Under the pieces are notes generated by a model. It saw only the letters and a program-made list of their open reading frames with translations. It had not been told where the DNA came from and did not search any database. From Crocinitomicaceae bacterium (GTDB lineage Bacteria; Bacteroidota; Bacteroidia; Flavobacteriales_D; Parvicellaceae), in assembly GCA_002716065.1 (NCBI GenBank), contig PAZE01000048.1:13-64012 (forward strand): DNA of 64,000 nucleotides. The letters are read 5' to 3'. Positions 3,073 through 64,000 of this stretch are shown here, piece by piece. Position 1 is the stretch's first letter; each line of letters opens with the position of its first letter. The translations under genes and the position numbers were made by a program.

Positions 3073-5136
3073 ATGAAAAACATCTTCTTTTTTACCTTAG
3101 TTCTTTTATTTAACTGTTCATTTTTATCTCAGGTTAATCCAGAAAATATTGAAATTGTAAGGGGTCAATATGGAACTCCACACATTTTTTCTAACTCTGA
3201 CAAGGAGGCCTCTTTTGGTTTAGCATGGGCTCATGCAGAAGATGATTTTAAAACCATTCAACAAACATTTTTGCCTGTAAAAAGTTTGTTGGGTAAATAT
3301 CAAGGAGCAGAAGGGGCAAAATTAGACTACATTGTTTATTTGTTAAAGTGTAAAGAAACTGTTGAGGCCAATTATCATAAGTTATCTGAAGAAGTATTGG
3401 AGGTAATTGACGGATATGTTCAGGGCATCAACGCCTATGCTAAAGCCCATCCCGAAGAAGTGTTGGTGAAAAATACATTTCCAATTACCGTTAAGGAGTA
3501 CCTAATAGGTTATAATTTGGTTATTCATTTTTTTTCTGATACTGGAGATATTTTAAGAAAGCTTTTTGGCAATAAGATTGCACCATTGGACGATGTGTCA
3601 TTAAATCCTACAGGCTCTAATGGTTTTGCATTCAGAAAGCAAAAAACAGCTGATAGTAAAACCTATTTAAATGTTAATACTCATCAACCATTGGAAGGTC
3701 CATTTGCATGGTATGAAGCTCATGTGGTTTCAAATGAAGGTTGGAATATGTTAGGAGGACTTTTTCCTGGCTCACCATTTCCATTTATTGGCACAAATGA
3801 ACATCTTGGATGGACTCATACGTATAATTATCCTGATTTAATTGATTTGTATCAGCTAGAAATGCATCCTAGAAATAAGCGTAAATATAAATTTGATGAT
3901 CAATGGGTAAAACTAATTAAATCAAAAGCTAAGCTAAAAGTGAAGCTAAAAATGGGAATTACGATTCCTGTTCGAAAAAAAGTTTTTTGGAGTAAGTACG
4001 GTCCTGTAGTTAAAAATGATAGTGGTGTATTTTCTTTTCATTTAAATGCATTGGAGAATATATCGTCAATTGATCAATGGTATCACATGAACAAATCAAC
4101 CAATTTTGATGAATTTAGCAAGGCGCTTAATATTATGGGAATTCCACGGTTTAATATTGTTTATGCTGATAGAGCGGATAATATTTATTATTTAAGTAAT
4201 GCTCAGCTTCCTGTTAGAGATTCGTCAATTAATTGGAATACTTTACTTCCAGGTAACACTTCAAAAACACTAACCAATTCCTACCATAAAATAGAAGATT
4301 TGCCTCAAGTTTTTAACCCATCTTGCGGATACATCTTTAATACCAATAATAGCCCATACAATTGCACACACAAAGACGACAATCCTAATGAGCTACTGTA
4401 TCCCTCTACTTTTTCATTTAGGGAAGACATTAACAATAGAAGTATTCGCTTTGAAGAGCTCATTGCCCAATACGATAAAATTTCTTACGAAGATTTTATT
4501 GCCATTAAATACGATCAACAATATCCTACACCTATTTTTTGTCCTTTTGAGATAAATGGAGTGTTTAATTTAAATCCTGATGATTACCCACATATTAAAG
4601 AGCTAATTAACTTATTTATTAACTGGGATAGAAAGGCGGATGTTAACAATAAAGCTGCTGCACATTGGTATGTCTATTTTAAACACTTAAGAAAAAGCGT
4701 AAAAAAATTAAAGCTGGATGTTCAGCTTCCTGTAGAAGATTCTATTTTGGTGAAATCTTTAGAGTATACCCAAGATTTTTTCATGCATAATTTCGGAACC
4801 TTAGATGTATTACATGGAGATTTTCAAAAACACATCAGGTCAAATGTGCAACTGCCAGTTCCTGGATTAATGGATATGATAGCTGCTACATCATCAAATA
4901 AGTACGATTCTACAAAAATAAAGGCTGTCTCTGGCGATTCGTACATTATGTTGATTCGGTATTCTGAGGATAAAGTTGAAATTGAAACTGTTTTACCTTA
5001 TGGAATTAGTAACCACGAGGATTCACCACACCACACCGATCAGATGCACATGTATGTAAATCATCAACGAAAAAGAATGACTTTAGATAAAGATGAAATC
5101 TACAAAACAGCAAAGAGTATTTATCATCCTAAATGA
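3073..5136 (+). CDS. penicillin acylase / acyl-homoserine-lactone acylase family protein (Ntn hydrolase)
   Basis: Signal peptide from ATG 3073. Internal G-S-N (PTGSNGFAF) in the position of the autoproteolytic Ser nucleophile. Size is about 690 aa. Confidence 0.8.
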   Translation: MKNIFFFTLVLLFNCSFLSQVNPENIEIVRGQYGTPHIFSNSDKEASFGLAWAHAEDDFKTIQQTFLPVKSLLGKYQGAEGAKLDYIVYLLKCKETVEANYHKLSEEVLEVIDGYVQGINAYAKAHPEEVLVKNTFPITVKEYLIGYNLVIHFFSDTGDILRKLFGNKIAPLDDVSLNPTGSNGFAFRKQKTADSKTYLNVNTHQPLEGPFAWYEAHVVSNEGWNMLGGLFPGSPFPFIGTNEHLGWTHTYNYPDLIDLYQLEMHPRNKRKYKFDDQWVKLIKSKAKLKVKLKMGITIPVRKKVFWSKYGPVVKNDSGVFSFHLNALENISSIDQWYHMNKSTNFDEFSKALNIMGIPRFNIVYADRADNIYYLSNAQLPVRDSSINWNTLLPGNTSKTLTNSYHKIEDLPQVFNPSCGYIFNTNNSPYNCTHKDDNPNELLYPSTFSFREDINNRSIRFEELIAQYDKISYEDFIAIKYDQQYPTPIFCPFEINGVFNLNPDDYPHIKELINLFINWDRKADVNNKAAAHWYVYFKHLRKSVKKLKLDVQLPVEDSILVKSLEYTQDFFMHNFGTLDVLHGDFQKHIRSNVQLPVPGLMDMIAATSSNKYDSTKIKAVSGDSYIMLIRYSEDKVEIETVLPYGISNHEDSPHHTDQMHMYVNHQRKRMTLDKDEIYKTAKSIYHPK

Positions 5137-60454: not shown

Positions 60455-61492
60455 TTAAAAAACTGGACAATAGATTACTCGGTATTTATCAGATTTGTTT
60501 ATTTCTTTTTGTGGAAGATCAAAAGTAATGGATATTTCATGAGATCCTGCAGAGGAACCAATAAGATTAGATAAATTTAAATCATACGAATAGCCAATTC
60601 TCATTTTGGTAGTTTCAATACCTCCCATGAGTACTAAAGCATCTTGAAGTTTAAAGATTTCATTAGTTGGGTTTAGGAAATTGGTGTGTCTATACCAAAT
60701 TCCAAAGCCTAAAATTCCATCTAAAAAATAGGCGCCAAAATTAAATTGCTTAAAATTATTTTGTAAATCGAATAATAGGTTAGGAGATATATATAATGGT
60801 TTGTGAAATAATCCGTTTTTAAGAATCGTTATCTGTTTTCCTGCATGAAGAGTATATCTTACGGGAAGTTTATTGTTTTCACTGCCATTAACAATAAATG
60901 ATTCTTGTGGTCTAGTAAGGTGATGAACAGCAAACCCAACAAATGAATTGGGTAAAAATGAAGCAAATTCAGAGGAAAAAAATACACATCCAGCACCAGC
61001 ATCAAAATAACTTGATGTTGGATTGTTAATGGTTTGATTGGTAGAATAAACAAAACCTCTTATTTCATCAATTTGATCACCAAATTGAGCAAGGCTAGTA
61101 TTGAAGCTTTTTTGCTGAAAAGCTCCTTTAAGACTAAAAGAGGAAGACCATCCTTTAGTTAATTTTATATGATACGCATAGCTTATACTTAATAAATTGG
61201 TGTTAAGTACTCCATTAGCAGTTTTATCGTGTAAAAATTGAAATCCCAGACCACCATGAATTTTTTCAATAAAATCATCGTATTCAAGATTATAGGTAAC
61301 GTATGCATTTTTTATTTCAGGCCATTGATTTCTGTAACCAGAATGAAATCTGGGGCTTAAATCTTTTCCAGCAAGAGCTGGATTAAGATGTAATGAATTA
61401 GCATAAAACTGAGTAAACTGAGGGTCTTGAGCGTACAGAAAGTAGGTTAAAAAAACACAAGGAAAAAGAAAAGTATATTTTATAAACCTCAT
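60455..61492 (-). CDS. PorP/SprF family type IX secretion system membrane protein
   Basis: Signal peptide followed by QDPQFTQFYANSLHLNPALAG, the hallmark N-terminal motif of PorP/SprF proteins. Beta-barrel-like; 345 aa. Confidence 0.85.
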   Translation of the reverse strand: MRFIKYTFLFPCVFLTYFLYAQDPQFTQFYANSLHLNPALAGKDLSPRFHSGYRNQWPEIKNAYVTYNLEYDDFIEKIHGGLGFQFLHDKTANGVLNTNLLSISYAYHIKLTKGWSSSFSLKGAFQQKSFNTSLAQFGDQIDEIRGFVYSTNQTINNPTSSYFDAGAGCVFFSSEFASFLPNSFVGFAVHHLTRPQESFIVNGSENNKLPVRYTLHAGKQITILKNGLFHKPLYISPNLLFDLQNNFKQFNFGAYFLDGILGFGIWYRHTNFLNPTNEIFKLQDALVLMGGIETTKMRIGYSYDLNLSNLIGSSAGSHEISITFDLPQKEINKSDKYRVIYCPVF

Positions 61493-62260
61493 TTATTTAA
61501 AGTTTGCAAGAACATCCATTAGAAGCTCTTTTTTCCTAACGGAAACATCTACATGAGAGTCATTACTTAAAACAACATACCCACCTTTACCTTTTATGTA
61601 TTTTTTGATATGACCTAGGTTAACCATATTAGATTTATGAACTCTGAAAAAATTACATTCACTTAGCAGTTCTTCAAATTCTCTTAACGATTTTGAAACT
61701 GTGATTTTTTGACCATTAGTAAGGTAAAAATTACAATATGCACGATCTGCTTCACATCTTAAAATTTCATTTATTTCATAAAACTCTATGCCTTCTAATG
61801 AGGGTAAAGCAATTTTCTTAAACTCAAAGCCTTCATTTTTCTGGTTATCTTTAAGAATGTCAAATCGCTGATCAACAGATTTATTTGTAGAGTTAACTAT
61901 ACTATTTATAGCTTTTTCTACAGCAATTTTAAGTTCATTTACATTTATAGGTTTTAATAAATAGTCTAATGCAGCAAATTTTATTGCTTTAATTGCATAG
62001 TCTGCATGTGCTGTTGTGAAAATCAATTGAAAAGAGGGGTTGTCAAACTTTTCCAACAAGGTGAAACCATTTCCACCAGGCATTTCAATATCCAAGAAAA
62101 TGATTTGTGGATTGTGATTGTCTATAAATTCTTTTGCAGACTGAACATTCTCTGCCTGTCCAATAACTTTGACCCCGTAACAAAACTGTTCAATTAATTT
62201 AGCTAAAGTTTCTCGATTTTTGTGTTCATCATCAACAATAAGGGCGGTAACATCTTCCAT
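61493..62260 (-). CDS. LytR/AlgR-family response regulator (receiver + LytTR DNA-binding domain)
   Basis: Receiver domain (LIVDDE…FLDIEMPGGNG…) and LytTR domain (…FFRVHKSNMVNLGHIKKY…). Its stop directly abuts the PorP/SprF start. Confidence 0.9.
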   Translation of the reverse strand: MEDVTALIVDDEHKNRETLAKLIEQFCYGVKVIGQAENVQSAKEFIDNHNPQIIFLDIEMPGGNGFTLLEKFDNPSFQLIFTTAHADYAIKAIKFAALDYLLKPINVNELKIAVEKAINSIVNSTNKSVDQRFDILKDNQKNEGFEFKKIALPSLEGIEFYEINEILRCEADRAYCNFYLTNGQKITVSKSLREFEELLSECNFFRVHKSNMVNLGHIKKYIKGKGGYVVLSNDSHVDVSVRKKELLMDVLANFK

Positions 62261-62298
62261 CTTTAAATTATTTACTTAAAGATAATAGAATAAAGATA

Positions 62299-62751
62299 TT
62301 ATCGTATAAGAACTACAGACCCTTTTTTAACAATAATGTTTTCACCAGTTATATTTACAGCTTTTACTTGATAAACATATGTTCCAAGTGGTGCAGGAGT
62401 TCCTCTGTAATCTCCATTCCATTGCTCATTTAAATCATTAGCTTGAAAAACTAGTTGTCCCCATCTGTTGTAGATTTCTAACGAATAATTTTCAACTCCC
62501 TGTCCTTTAAATGCAAAATAATCATTAGTTCCGTCACCATCTGGTGAAAATACGTTTGGAGCATACAATGTTAATGGCTTGTCTACAGCTATTGTATTTG
62601 ATACACTTACTATTTGTTCATTTTGATTTTGAACAGCAACAATTCTGTATATGTCTAAATTTTCATTATATACATTTTGAGTGTTCTGTCCAATAAAGGA
62701 TAAACTCATAATTGAGAATAGGGCTGTTAGTATGGTGTTTTTTACTTTCAT
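62299..62751 (-). CDS. small secreted protein: signal peptide + short linker + T9SS type B (gliding-motility-associated, CHU_C) C-terminal sorting domain
   Basis: ATG at 62751 (MKVKNTILTALFSIMSLSFIGQ). PNVFSPDGDGTNDYF … YRGTPAPLGTYVYQV … GSVVLIR are the hallmarks of type B CTDs. The TTG at 62769 lies inside the -7 box. Confidence 0.75.
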   Translation of the reverse strand: MKVKNTILTALFSIMSLSFIGQNTQNVYNENLDIYRIVAVQNQNEQIVSVSNTIAVDKPLTLYAPNVFSPDGDGTNDYFAFKGQGVENYSLEIYNRWGQLVFQANDLNEQWNGDYRGTPAPLGTYVYQVKAVNITGENIIVKKGSVVLIR

Positions 62752-62766
62752 ATCTAAATGATTACC

Positions 62767-62774
62767 CAAATTTA
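62767..62774 (-). promoter_or_regulatory. -7 box TAAATTTG of the small-CTD / LytTR RR / PorP-SprF operon
   Basis: Minus-strand TAAATTTG matches TAnnTTTG and lies 15 nt upstream of the ATG at 62751. Confidence 0.4.
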
Positions 62775-62807
62775 AGTAGAGGTAGTCATTTGTATAAAAG
62801 TGCTTTT

Positions 62808-62837
62808 CCTAACGTTACATTTTACTTTTCTAACGTA
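62808..62837 (-). promoter_or_regulatory. pair of LytTR-type direct repeats with 21-bp phasing
   Basis: On the minus strand, TACGTTAGA (62837-62829) and AACGTTAGG (62816-62808) give a 9-mer + 12-nt spacer + 9-mer. They match [TA][AC][CA]GTTN[AG][TG] at 8/9 and 9/9. Confidence 0.5.
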
Positions 62838-62849
62838 ACTTTTACAGAA

Positions 62850-64000
62850 TTATGGGTCAATTAAGGTATTGTTAATATCTGGATTTACAACTTTTAGCAC
62901 TTCCCATTGACCGTATTCATTGAGCTTTTGAATTTCATATCTATTTACACCTTTATCCCAATTTTCGTAGGAAGACCATCTTAGAACTGTTTGAAATTCA
63001 TTGGGTTTCTCATAACCTAAAAGAACAGAGCTGCTTATATTTGATGCATTAGATGGAACATTACATTTATTTATGGATACAACATAATACGTGTAGTTTT
63101 GATTAAACACGTCTACATCAGGATCAATGTAGTTGTCTACTGAAATGTCAAATGTTCCTAAGTATTCATAATTTAATTGATCAATAGATTTGAACAGCAC
63201 ATATTCCTTGACTTCATTAACTGCATTTTGTTTAGGGGCCCACTCTGTGTATACATCCTGATCATTAATAACTGTAGAGCGGATAATCTCAGGTGCTGGT
63301 AGTGGGGTTGTGTCATAAACAACTAAAGATTCATTAATATTGGCTCTCAATTTACATCCATATTCATTGATGATTTCTACAGTGAAATCATACCCGCCTA
63401 ATTCAAGTGTAAATGATGGACTTGGAGAAGTTGAAACTAATGAATCATCAATGAACCACTGATAATTTTCATTGTCAATAGAAGAAGAATTGTTGATTAT
63501 GTTGATGTCACTACCAATACAATGGGTAGGATTTTCAAATTCAAAATCTAATATTGGATTAGGTTGAATATAGAGGTAAGTACTGTCAGTATCGTAGCAT
63601 AAACCTGAAGTTTGATAGGTTATAACATAAGTTCCAGCAGAAAGATTAGAGGTGTTAAATACGCCAATAGCATTATTGTTAATTCCAGTTCCACTCCAAG
63701 TTCCACCCGTATTTATAGTATTTAAATTAATTAGTTGATTTGATTCACAAACAGCAATGGGTTGTAAAATAGTAGCATCAAGAAATTCTGTAACCTCAAT
63801 TTCAATTGTATCAGATGAAGGACAATCTCCTTCAATAGAATAAATGTAATTGTGAAAACCTACATTTAAGTTGTTAATTGATATTTCTCCTGTTGAGCTA
63901 TTAATACTACTACCCATCCAAATACCTGAAGGGTAATTTGCTGATAGTGTAGTTGATTGAAGATTACTACAGATTAAGCCAGGATCTGTAATGGAAATAA
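62850..64000 (-). CDS. large cell-surface adhesin-like protein (Ig/PKD/FN3-like repeats), C-terminal part; 5' end lies outside the window
   Basis: The frame stays open upstream of the listed Met to the window edge (translated by hand). Repetitive beta-rich domains typical of Bacteroidota gliding-associated surface proteins. It ends without a recognisable T9SS CTD. Confidence 0.65.
   Translation of the reverse strand, partial: ISITDPGLICSNLQSTTLSANYPSGIWMGSSINSSTGEISINNLNVGFHNYIYSIEGDCPSSDTIEIEVTEFLDATILQPIAVCESNQLINLNTINTGGTWSGTGINNNAIGVFNTSNLSAGTYVITYQTSGLCYDTDSTYLYIQPNPILDFEFENPTHCIGSDINIINNSSSIDNENYQWFIDDSLVSTSPSPSFTLELGGYDFTVEIINEYGCKLRANINESLVVYDTTPLPAPEIIRSTVINDQDVYTEWAPKQNAVNEVKEYVLFKSIDQLNYEYLGTFDISVDNYIDPDVDVFNQNYTYYVVSINKCNVPSNASNISSSVLLGYEKPNEFQTVLRWSSYENWDKGVNRYEIQKLNEYGQWEVLKVVNPDINNTLIDP

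Follow-up and report, generated by a model that had tools for sequence, protein, structure and literature searches.

To our knowledge, a protein currently counts as a T9SS substrate by its covalently attached C-terminal sorting domain (CTD), a rule that all cargo censuses and secretion models apply, and all characterised T9SS type B cargo carries its passenger and its CTD on one polypeptide. The closest described systems are SprB/SprF of Flavobacterium johnsoniae and PG1035-PorP of P. gingivalis, in which a giant, repeat-rich, adhesin-like cargo ends in a type B CTD and a PorP/SprF gene lies downstream. Type B cargo needs, and stays bound to, the PorP/SprF-like protein of the neighbouring gene (PMC9143113; PMC12618676). 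In another system of P. gingivalis, PorA-PorXY-SigP, a small CTD-bearing T9SS cargo, PorA, is tied to a two-component system; its CTD is of type A, and its target is the membrane kinase PorY, on which it acts from the periplasmic side. A third point of comparison is given by the Firmicute autoinduction circuits agr, com and pln and by LytS/LytR and BtsS/BtsR, which share with the present locus a REC-LytTR regulator, 21-nt direct repeats before the promoter of its own gene and a PF06580 kinase. We know very little of LytTR regulons in Bacteroidota. Here, we analysed a locus at one end of a 64,000-nt stretch of DNA (the window) from a Crocinitomicaceae bacterium, in which a small CTD protein, judged by its sequence and that of its relatives, looks like the detached, secretion-tag-bearing tail of an upstream giant surface protein and not like a signalling peptide.

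Three genes of the locus run in the same direction on the minus strand and encode the small CTD protein, a REC-LytTR response regulator and a PorP/SprF protein. The original prediction had described them in this arrangement, with the PorP/SprF start abutting the regulator stop, and both statements hold: the PorP/SprF ATG directly follows the TAA of the regulator. The three genes are real, but the gene immediately upstream, which encodes a 1954-aa PKD-repeat protein, had been omitted, and this big gene is the key to understanding the locus. The genes and the parts of the small protein are as follows.

60455-61492, minus strand: outer-membrane protein of the PorP/SprF family, 345 aa, presumed to shuttle and anchor the type B CTD as its cognate partner.
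61493-62260, minus strand: response regulator of REC-LytTR type, 255 aa, lying between the small gene and PorP/SprF.
62299-62751, minus strand: small protein gene, ATG start, 150 aa, signal peptide and type B CTD.
62689-62751, minus strand: signal peptide of the small protein, residues 1-21, with a hydrophobic N-terminus and predicted cleavage before Q22.
62572-62688, minus strand: 'linker' or hairpin of the small protein, residues 22-60, QNTQNVYNENLDIYRIVAVQNQNEQIVSVSNTIAVDKP.
62299-62571, minus strand: type B CTD (CHU_C / TIGR04131) and stop codon, from profile matches, AlphaFold2 and Foldseek.
62850-64000, minus strand: 3' end of the big cargo gene, with its stop codon at 62850-62852 and the frame open to the window end.

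The small protein can be described as a signal peptide, a linker and a type B sorting domain, as had been proposed. Its N-terminus, MKVKNTILTALFSIMSLSFIG, which precedes Q22 and ends in ...SFIG, reads as hydrophobic; in all homologues the signal peptide is variable in sequence, hydrophobic throughout and closed by (A/S/G)Q. The CTD lies at the extreme C-terminus and exceeds the curated cut-offs of PF13585 (CHU_C; E=8.8e-21, 74.3 bits, cut-off 27) and of TIGR04131 (type B sorting domain; E=4.4e-16, 58.8 bits, cut-off 35), with the profile matches spanning residues 70-154 of the 156-aa TTG form of the protein. Public gene callers choose an internal ATG as the start, which yields 136 aa and loses the signal peptide, and the exact 150-aa protein is without a public record for this reason. 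In the AlphaFold2 model of the isolated protein, the CTD is a β-sandwich with pLDDT values of 54-89 in ten-residue blocks, which Foldseek matched to Ig/Fn3-like sandwiches, one of them a T9SS CTD (8gl8_D). The hairpin is unstructured in this model (pLDDT <50) and is not packed on the CTD; a segment that is disordered alone beside a folded CTD would be expected if it folds on a partner. These 39 residues are the only passenger that the small protein has ahead of its CTD, the PKD passenger-like protein being a separate ORF. Eight hairpin residues are invariant in the alignment of homologues (Y35, R36, N44, I47, S49, S51, N52 and P59), and the dN/dS of the hairpin, 0.05-0.10, is similar to that of the CTD. 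For the signal peptide, the ratio is 0.44-0.80 in four of five comparisons and 0.14 in the close pair L108/L109.

The big gene is complete on a TARA scaffold (L001:3547-9411). Its product comprises a signal peptide, about 14 PKD repeats, one complete and one truncated Fn3-like domain, and no CTD; Pfam recognises PKD_4, PKD and PKD_3 only. It has a Sec signal and neither a CTD nor a lipobox. The C-terminus, ...NRYEIQKLNEYGQWEVLKVVNPDINNTLIDP, is followed by the stop codon at a point that is the same in all relatives: down to 35% identity, the big proteins end in ...RYE(I/V)QKLN..G.WE......(I/L)I(D/N)(E/P). AlphaFold2 modelled the last 175 residues too poorly (pLDDT 44) to reveal an incomplete sandwich.

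The mature small protein begins exactly at the stop of the big protein and supplies two missing strands and the CTD. Its residues 22-60 correspond to F and G, the final strands of the Fn3-like domain that the big protein leaves incomplete. A profile HMM was built from five chimeras, each made of the tail of a big protein and the mature small protein. It matched single-chain proteins across the junction as one domain, in L029 (1652 aa, E=1e-38), L018 (655 aa), L071, L028 and L032, and the indels at the junction relative to these intact proteins amount to a few residues at most. The small protein is collinear with the final ~130 residues of ordinary giant type B cargo. A scan of contigs with the small-protein alignment returned mostly generic CHU_C tails, with L017 the one true orthologous locus among the matches listed; among the same matches, many giant CHU_C proteins align from residue 20-27 of the small protein, just past the signal peptide, and a profile search agrees on this starting point (e.g. 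P0103, P0144 and P0179). The search with a fused big and small query gave no protein covering both halves, only two separate families. The label 'Fn3-like' is used at the level of motifs, since the matches of the reconstituted split domain are weak: Pfam fn3 matched one of ten members (E=0.052), the PDB profile search gave FN3con at E=0.028 together with a spurious match to protein A, and the hhalign comparison with the neighbouring complete domain was not significant, its register being right over the N-terminal half only.

Across about 30 related loci, the conserved unit consists of the ~1950-aa PKD-repeat protein without CTD, the small CTD protein and PorP/SprF, in this order. In all 30 metagenomic loci with a relative of the big C-terminus (34-100% identity), the small gene comes directly after the big stop codon, and PorP/SprF comes next wherever the sequence extends far enough; the order is also found in L011-L017. 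The big and small genes are always adjacent in related loci. The small-gene ATG overlaps the big stop codon (gaATGA) in L014 and L015, and the frames overlap in L017, so that the two genes are predicted to be often translationally coupled. We rejected a fusion of the two ORFs by read-through or frameshift, because the frames differ, stops occur in all frames within the 80-nt spacer, and the signal peptide would end up buried inside a domain.

Our preferred reading, which we hold with moderate confidence, has two layers: a T9SS type B cargo split in two, with the CTD provided in trans, and a LytTR regulatory add-on. It builds on architecture, collinearity, conservation, selection and the joint occurrence of boxes and regulator, and from these we infer complementation, co-export, activation and the pairing of kinase and regulator. 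The first layer is shared by the whole clade. The big protein has a Sec signal peptide without a CTD and ends in the middle of an Fn3-like β-sandwich, after a '..T-L-I-D-P' loop. The small protein would be exported separately and, after cleavage, would start where the big protein stops, bringing the missing strands (Y-R-I-V-A ... S-V-S-N) and then the type B CTD. In the periplasm, the hairpin would complete the truncated domain by β-strand complementation, which is probably the means by which the CTD is supplied in trans. The non-covalent complex could then be recognised via the CTD, exported folded by the T9SS and passed to the PorP/SprF-like protein encoded downstream, which would keep it on the cell surface as SprF does with SprB. 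Such strand donation would resemble donor-strand complementation or exchange in chaperone-usher pili and in Bacteroidota type V pili, where an incomplete Ig/Fn3-like sandwich is completed by another polypeptide, and the carriage of a signal-less partner by a signal-bearing one would resemble the 'hitchhiker' export of folded complexes by Tat. However, two strands would be donated here instead of one, the machine would be the T9SS, and no homology is claimed. In the literature searched, we found neither T9SS export of a non-covalent heterodimer via a CTD in trans nor a published description of trans-CTD cargo.

The PorP/SprF protein is presumed to be the cognate shuttle. It matches PF11751 (E=1.1e-51) and TIGR03519 (E=2.1e-63, 214.5 bits, cut-off 90.55) over residues 3-325 for the latter, and its N-terminus, MRFIKYTFLFPCVFLTYFLYAQ, has the features of a signal peptide. 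As in SprB/SprF, the CTD would be expected to stay on the shuttle and so anchor the cargo at the surface (PMC9143113; PMC12618676). The gene follows the small gene in all related loci, and only the regulator-bearing lineage has a gene in between. Canonical single-chain pairs of cargo and PorP occur in L052 and L094, among the loci analysed. Unlike in SprB/SprF, the CTD here belongs to a second polypeptide of 150 aa that has a signal peptide of its own, the cargo body ends truncated, and in this sub-lineage the LytTR regulator gene separates the CTD gene from the shuttle gene. The C-terminal tails also differ. SprF uses a Cys-X-Cys in its periplasmic C-tail to bond GldK, while the shuttle here ends in ...YRVIYCPVF, with one cysteine (CPxF) that is invariant in all orthologues.

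The strongest alternative is that the small protein acts alone, capping or occupying the PorP/SprF barrel or serving as a minimal surface protein, with the hairpin as an extended type B sorting signal and the big protein functionally unrelated, or exported or retained otherwise. Mini type B CTD proteins with the same YR(V/I)xA...SxSN hairpin are in fact widespread: many distant ones are encoded by stand-alone genes with no CTD-less neighbour, and the remote mini proteins do not lie behind CTD-less giants, as seen in one good locus (L099/L100) and two short contigs. Since these stand-alone proteins share the hairpin, it may have a role of its own, for example in an extended sorting signal, and PG1035 has been proposed as a cap for PorP (PMC9143113). 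One mini protein, P0041, on a 554-bp contig, combines the hairpin of this clade with a different CTD. Two candidates for small ORFs, L068 and L077, look like frameshifted larger genes and were rejected. Solitary action would leave unexplained why the big protein has a fixed mid-domain end that the small protein continues exactly, and the constant adjacency and frequent predicted coupling of the two genes also speak against it. Furthermore, with a Sec signal but no CTD or lipobox, the 1954-aa PKD protein has no other evident route to the surface. We consider this alternative rather unlikely.

The second layer of the preferred reading concerns the regulator. It matches Response_reg (PF00072, E=1.3e-22) and LytTR (PF04397, E=6.2e-15), and its receiver residues can be read from the sequence as DD at 10-11, D57 in FLDIEMP, and K103. 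The gene is present only in the subclade of L001-L010, L097/L098 and L103-L109 and is absent from L011-L017 and L112-L133; it is a lineage-specific insertion in one sub-lineage of marine Flavobacteriales. The original prediction had treated the three genes as a co-conserved module and had proposed gene neighbourhoods as a check. In those of the relatives the three genes are not co-conserved, an outcome that it had named as refuting: most keep the small gene and PorP/SprF without the regulator. The regulator had also been called an orphan, which it probably is not. No histidine kinase adjoins it, but a kinase gene lies 6.5 kb upstream, ahead of the big gene and just past the window end (L001:2348-3436), with REC and LytS-type His_kinase (PF06580) domains (and HATPase_c). 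It is a candidate for the missing partner that the original prediction had sought elsewhere in the genome: L001, L097 and L098 have it, and the loci that lack the regulator lack it as well. LytTR regulators are usually paired with PF06580 kinases (LytS/LytR, BtsS/BtsR), and the pairing of this kinase with the regulator would agree with that. Its input domain is a receiver, and it has no transmembrane or periplasmic part; no hydrophobic segment was found in it (maximum of 1.06 in a 19-residue Kyte-Doolittle window).

The promoter of the small gene carries two direct repeats 21 nt apart (62805-62822 and 62826-62843), as well as a Bacteroidota -7 box, in line with the proposed LytTR-box promoter. 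The elements are the following.

62825-62836, minus strand: distal LytTR-type box, ACGTTAGAAAAG, from direct repeat and pattern search; kept in all regulator-bearing lineages.
62804-62815, minus strand: proximal LytTR-type box, ACGTTAGGAAAA, 21 nt downstream of the distal box.
62767-62774, minus strand: putative -7 element TAAATTTG, 29 nt past the proximal box and 15 nt before the ATG.
61531-61542, minus strand: copy of the box with one mismatch, CCGTTAGGAAAA, 40 nt ahead of the PorP/SprF start codon and within the 3' end of the regulator gene.

LytTR target promoters have two imperfect direct repeats ~21 nt apart, and the -7 consensus of Bacteroidota sigma-A promoters is TAnnTTTG, which TAAATTTG fits. 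This element is kept in seven of the eight regulator-bearing lineages, with TATATTTA instead in the L107/L110 lineage. All eight distinct lineages have a spacer of ~80-90 nt with two ACG(T/A)TAGAAA / ACGTTNGGAA boxes 21 nt apart, while the remainder of the spacer has diverged among them; in the regulator-free lineages, the spacer is at most 40 nt or an ATGA overlap and has no boxes. The co-occurrence of the regulator with ACGTTAGRAA boxes at the small-gene promoter is perfect, and the tandem pattern has no other occurrence in the 1.69 Mb of loci analysed. In the window and its extension, there are just two exact copies of the 12-mer. An identical ACGTTAGGAAAA stands before the big gene (L001:3473-3484), likewise 29 nt from a TAnnTTTG, and is conserved in L097; the upstream half-site of this promoter is degenerate. 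The significance of CCGTTAGGAAAA is doubtful because no -7 element follows it. A scan for sigma-70 promoters and terminators gave background level only. The predicted control of the small gene by the co-encoded regulator is borne out as far as the boxes co-occur with the regulator in eight lineages, binding itself being a prediction, and the small gene is very probably controlled in this way together with the regulator and PorP/SprF genes. Positive autoregulation is plausible, because the boxes track the regulator across lineages, and with a second copy of the box before the big gene the regulon looks like the cargo itself. In the window's subclade only, the LytTR regulator was inserted between the small gene and PorP/SprF, and the soluble REC-LytS-type kinase ahead of the big gene; the junction of the big and small genes grew from an ATGA overlap or short spacer to ~80 nt with two boxes and a -7 element. 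The phosphorylated regulator would then activate both promoters, so that the adhesin-like cargo, its CTD piece and the shuttle would be made in response to a signal and under positive autoregulation.

The same boxes, which precede an operon containing the regulator itself, had led to a different proposal, that the small protein is a T9SS-exported signal whose LytTR-driven gene has a dedicated PorP/SprF exporter, as an analogue of agr, com and pln. PorA-PorY of P. gingivalis, with a small CTD protein as ligand of a kinase, offers a precedent (PMC12152298). In contrast to PorA, the small protein here is conserved without any regulator, and PorP/SprF with it, in most relatives, and the kinase lacks a periplasmic part. 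As the collinear tail of an upstream giant cargo, the small protein completes a domain that is truncated in the 1954-aa protein, which does not agree with an exported signal. The one kinase in the vicinity is a soluble protein with REC as its input, so direct sensing of an exported protein would be impossible for it, while the agr/com/pln type has a membrane sensor; the kinase also does not adjoin the regulator. Unlike in agr, com and pln, the 20-kb locus has no gene for a peptide precursor, for processing (AgrB) or for ABC export or peptidase. Finally, the box also precedes the big gene, and the regulon looks like a T9SS cargo module. We regard an autoinducing loop as improbable. Decay of an ordinary giant type B cargo gene, broken by mutation or insertion into pseudogene remnants or by assembly artefacts, would account for two ORFs that jointly rebuild the canonical single-chain architecture, and the long-read contigs L097 and L098 do contain frameshifted genes, but it is scarcely credible given the same break in >30 independent contigs or lineages down to 35% identity, a 1950-codon ORF that stays open in an AT-rich genome, a small-gene dN/dS of ~0.05-0.1, and a proper signal peptide gained and retained by the small gene in every lineage.

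If the complex forms, the T9SS can export hetero-complexes, and proteins without a CTD can be genuine cargo. The pair would also be a natural split domain for engineering T9SS secretion in trans. The LytTR-bearing sub-lineage is a clean comparative case, in which a two-component switch and its binding sites were grafted onto an existing secretion-cargo operon. More broadly, and on the same condition that the complex forms, the many unexplained ~150-aa 'gliding motility-associated C-terminal domain' proteins of Bacteroidota may be adaptors. We tentatively suggest, as a possibility, that mini type B CTD proteins, with signal peptide, 'YRVxA...SxSN' hairpin and CTD, are widespread trans-acting adaptors that dock on CTD-less partners with truncated Fn3-like ends and carry them via the T9SS to a PorP/SprF anchor. 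Were this true, the adjacent, coupled pair described here would reveal the rule and the stand-alone minis would serve partners encoded elsewhere; T9SS cargo would need no CTD of its own, and censuses based on the CTD would miss such passengers.

The three co-directional genes of the original prediction, encoding a small protein with a T9SS type B sorting domain, a LytTR regulator and a PorP/SprF-like protein, are real, with open reading frames and family matches found for all of them on the minus strand. They follow the gene of a big PKD-repeat protein. The features are listed here in order of transcription within the window, and then the kinase gene seen on L001, an 89-kb scaffold that contains this locus together with sequence past the window end.

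62850 to window end, minus strand: big ORF, open to the window end, with its stop at 62850; first in transcription order
Between the big stop and the small ORF, minus strand: spacer of 80 nt
62299-62751, minus strand: small ORF, 150 aa from its ATG; CHU_C / T9SS type B sorting domain, E=8.8e-21
61493-62260, minus strand: regulator ORF, 255 aa; Response_reg and LytTR (Pfam/NCBIfam)
60455-61492, minus strand: PorP/SprF ORF, 345 aa; TIGR03519, 214 bits
Ahead of the big gene on L001: kinase gene, 362 aa; receiver, PF06580 His_kinase (LytS/YehU-type) and a weak HATPase_c

The small protein also scored 58.8 bits against TIGR04131 of NCBIfam (cut-off 35). The ATG of the 345-aa PorP/SprF ORF comes immediately after the TAA stop of the regulator, and Usp, PrxQ and DPP-IV-like genes lie downstream on the minus strand. 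In public annotations, the small gene begins at an internal ATG (62707-62709, against 62749-62751), which gives a 136-aa form that has lost the signal peptide; the 150-aa form is therefore missing from the protein collection, and with the public start the protein would be wrongly predicted to be cytoplasmic. Separating the small gene from the regulator is a gap of 38 nt (62259-62297), which holds an AT-rich imperfect inverted repeat with 19-nt arms, 74% complementary; this repeat was not scored as a terminator.

Seventeen public contigs, most of them from TARA Oceans assemblies, encode the identical regulator protein. On L001, the big protein is complete; its 1954 aa comprise a Sec signal peptide and roughly 14 PKD repeats, and it contains no CTD of any kind. 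LytTR regulators are usually partnered by PF06580 kinases, as in LytS/LytR and BtsS/BtsR, and since one such kinase is encoded ahead of the big gene, beyond the window end, the regulator is probably not the orphan that it was taken for. Directly upstream of the module there is also a gene for a secreted protein of about 170 aa, which has no Pfam or NCBIfam match. It is located upstream of the kinase and outside the window in L001 (1807-2319), and immediately upstream of the big gene in relatives (L011:3554-4078, L016:3507-4019 and L017:~3608-4036). This protein is kept in lineages with and without the regulator and may belong to the module as well.

Judged by sequence, the small protein is a tail that has been split off the big protein. 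A fused query, made of the last 153 residues of the big protein and the mature small protein, matched no protein spanning both halves, and its matches formed two separate families. The first consists of C-termini of large proteins with the common end point ...RYE(I/V)QKLN..G.WE......I(D/N)(E/P)*. The second consists of proteins of 155-164 aa, in which a variable signal peptide ending in (A/S/G)Q is followed by the motif Y.E...(I/T)YR(I/V)VA..N.N.QI.S.SN...VEKP and then by the CTD. In a 15-sequence alignment, the segment previously described as a linker is as conserved as the CTD, with Y35, R36, N44, I47, S49, S51, N52 and P59 invariant. Among the 80 genome loci listed, the match of giant canonical CHU_C proteins to the small protein often starts at residue 20-27, directly after the signal peptide, and a profile search of 1.8 billion representatives found the same start past the signal peptide in large proteins such as P0103, P0144 and P0179. 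Moreover, a profile HMM built from five chimeras of the big tail and the mature small protein matched single chains in one unbroken domain over the junction, in L029 (1652 aa, E=1e-38), L018 (655 aa), L071, L028 and L032. The alignment places the break after 't.Y.D' in a W...Y...Y.I...G...t.Y.D...Y.YR(I/V).A...S.SN domain, the first part of which is on the big protein and the last two strands of which are on the mature small protein. The latter starts at Q22, exactly at the break, and indels at the junction with respect to the single-chain proteins amount to a few residues at most. The pattern of this domain is a textbook signature of the Fn3-like sandwich, with weak HMM support for the label: Pfam fn3 matched one of ten members (E=0.052) and PDB FN3con gave E=0.028. 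Comparison of the split domain with the neighbouring complete domain using hhalign was not significant.

About half of the top 150 profile hits belong to a large and diverse family of mini proteins of 140-160 aa (P0044-P0125; L099:8001-8438), composed of a signal peptide ending in (A/S/G)Q, 5-15 residues, YR(V/I)xA...SxSN and a type B CTD. The one mini locus seen in full, L099:8001-8438, is stand-alone and adjoins an intact cargo-PorP pair and a two-component system.

In the AlphaFold2 model of the small protein (pLDDT 64), residues 61-150 form a β-sandwich while residues 21-60, though highly conserved, are unstructured and unpacked. Among the generic Ig/Fn3 sandwiches that Foldseek matched to it is a T9SS CTD from the structure of the SprA translocon complex (8gl8_D). 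The AlphaFold2 model of the tail of the big protein was too poor to use. We infer that the small hairpin would physically complement the big tail. Sec would export both polypeptides, the hairpin would complete the truncated sandwich in which the big protein ends, and the type B CTD would then take the complex, already folded, through the T9SS and on to the PorP/SprF-like protein. In the lineage of the window, the REC-LytS-type kinase and the LytTR regulator would make production conditional and self-reinforcing. Type B cargo is known to need a PorP/SprF-like protein for secretion and to stay bound to it (PMC12618676; PMC9143113). The architectural statements on the locus alone are close to certain; the whole chain, from Sec export and complementation to T9SS/PorP-SprF delivery and LytTR control, seems to us a little likelier to hold than to fail. 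The main rival, which we consider unlikely, gives the unit of hairpin and CTD a function of its own; in its favour, stand-alone genes encode distant mini proteins with the same hairpin.

The PorP/SprF C-termini (window 60455-60484; orthologues L011-L133) all end in ...(Y/F)RV(I/V)xCPxF; the one cysteine of this periplasmic C-tail is invariant. SprF has a Cys-X-Cys tail that forms a disulfide with GldK (PMC12635249), whereas the protein of this locus has the single cysteine, through which, by analogy, this shuttle may be similarly tethered to the track.

In the spacer between the big and small genes are two direct repeats with a spacing of 21 nt and the cores ACGTTAGAAAAG and ACGTTAGGAAAA. They are followed, after exactly 29 nt, by TAAATTTG, which agrees with the -7 consensus of Bacteroidota, TAnnTTTG; a generic sigma-70 and terminator scan gave background level only. 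Only one subclade (L001-L010, L097/L098, L103-L106, L108 and L109), with small-protein identity of at least 68%, has the regulator placed after the small gene and before PorP/SprF. The contigs of L107, L110 and L111 have the boxes and end before the regulator position, and from L112 downward PorP/SprF directly follows the small gene. The REC-PF06580 kinase is present ahead of the big gene in L001, L097 and L098 and absent in L011-L013, L016 and L017. In all eight regulator-bearing lineages, the spacer is 80-90 nt long and reads ACG(T/A)TAGAAA, 12 nt, ACGTTNGGAA and, about 29 nt on, the -7 box, which is TAnnTTTG in seven of them and TATATTTA in the L107/L110 lineage; positions outside the boxes have diverged. 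Regulator-less lineages have AT-rich spacers of at most 40 nt, without boxes. In 1.69 Mb of fetched loci, a tandem-box regular expression matched this spacer only. Within the window and its extension, the exact 12-mer ACGTTAGGAAAA has one further copy, ahead of the big gene and again 29 nt from TATGTTTG; this copy is kept in L097. Because boxes precede both the small gene and the big gene, the regulon likely comprises the cargo, the CTD piece, the regulator itself and the shuttle. Judged by its distribution among these loci, the LytTR layer is a lineage-specific add-on.

A one-mismatch box, CCGTTAGGAAAA, lies in the last codons of the regulator (window 61531-61542, minus strand), at a distance of 40 nt from the start of PorP/SprF downstream; it has no -7 element after it and may be a coincidence or a weak internal site. 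Upstream synteny differs between the lineage types (L001:1-1784 versus L011:928-3444), with a CotH/β-helix protein in those bearing the regulator and a Rieske oxygenase and a Na+/H+ antiporter in those lacking it, while the downstream Usp, PrxQ, DPP-IV, thioredoxin, K+ channel and citrate synthase genes are common to both.

The original prediction was of a small T9SS-exported protein acting as an autoinducer-like signal under the co-encoded LytTR regulator. Comparative evidence favors the link between promoter and regulator, and autoregulation. The secreted signal is unsupported, because the three genes are not conserved together, an obvious structural partner of the small protein exists in the big protein, the 362-aa kinase has no hydrophobic segment and cannot see the periplasm, and genes for peptide processing are absent. 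Among small CTD proteins with a part in signalling, the closest precedent is PorA, which binds the membrane kinase PorY through its type A CTD (PMC12152298), but its architecture is unlike that of this locus and the precedent does not fit.

Syntenic loci of relatives (L011-L017 and the P0012 locus; 41-64% identity) have the order 170-aa protein, big PKD protein (1951-1974 aa), small CHU_C protein, PorP/SprF, Usp and PrxQ, followed by further genes. Scanning metagenomes with the alignment of big tails gave 31 loci; in 30 of the 30 analysable ones the small gene is directly 3' of the big stop codon, and PorP/SprF comes next wherever the sequence allows. In L014 and L015, the start codon of the small gene and the stop codon of the big gene overlap (gaATGA), as is classic for translational coupling, and in L017 the two frames also overlap. 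Between regulator-bearing lineages, dN/dS (Nei-Gojobori) of the hairpin is 0.05-0.10 and that of the CTD 0.05-0.19; the signal peptide has values of 0.44-0.80, except in the closely related L108 and L109 (0.14). Since the split is conserved, coupled and under selection, decay or an assembly artefact as its cause is ruled out for practical purposes.

In L108 (679-1727), the box-bearing promoter and the small CTD gene behind it occur twice in tandem, as identical copies, after the big gene and before the regulator; this is either a true duplication that raises the dosage of the CTD piece or an error of assembly. P0041 (149 aa), from the contig L134 of only 554 bp, joins the signal peptide and hairpin of this clade to a different CHU_C-type tail, which could have come about by exchange of the CTD or by chimeric assembly.

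In the literature searched, coverage of which was incomplete, we found no description of a cargo with its CTD on a separate polypeptide, nor of a LytTR regulator embedded in a cargo-shuttle pair. The finding puts a twist on the T9SS type B cargo with its shuttle that can be tested and may be general.
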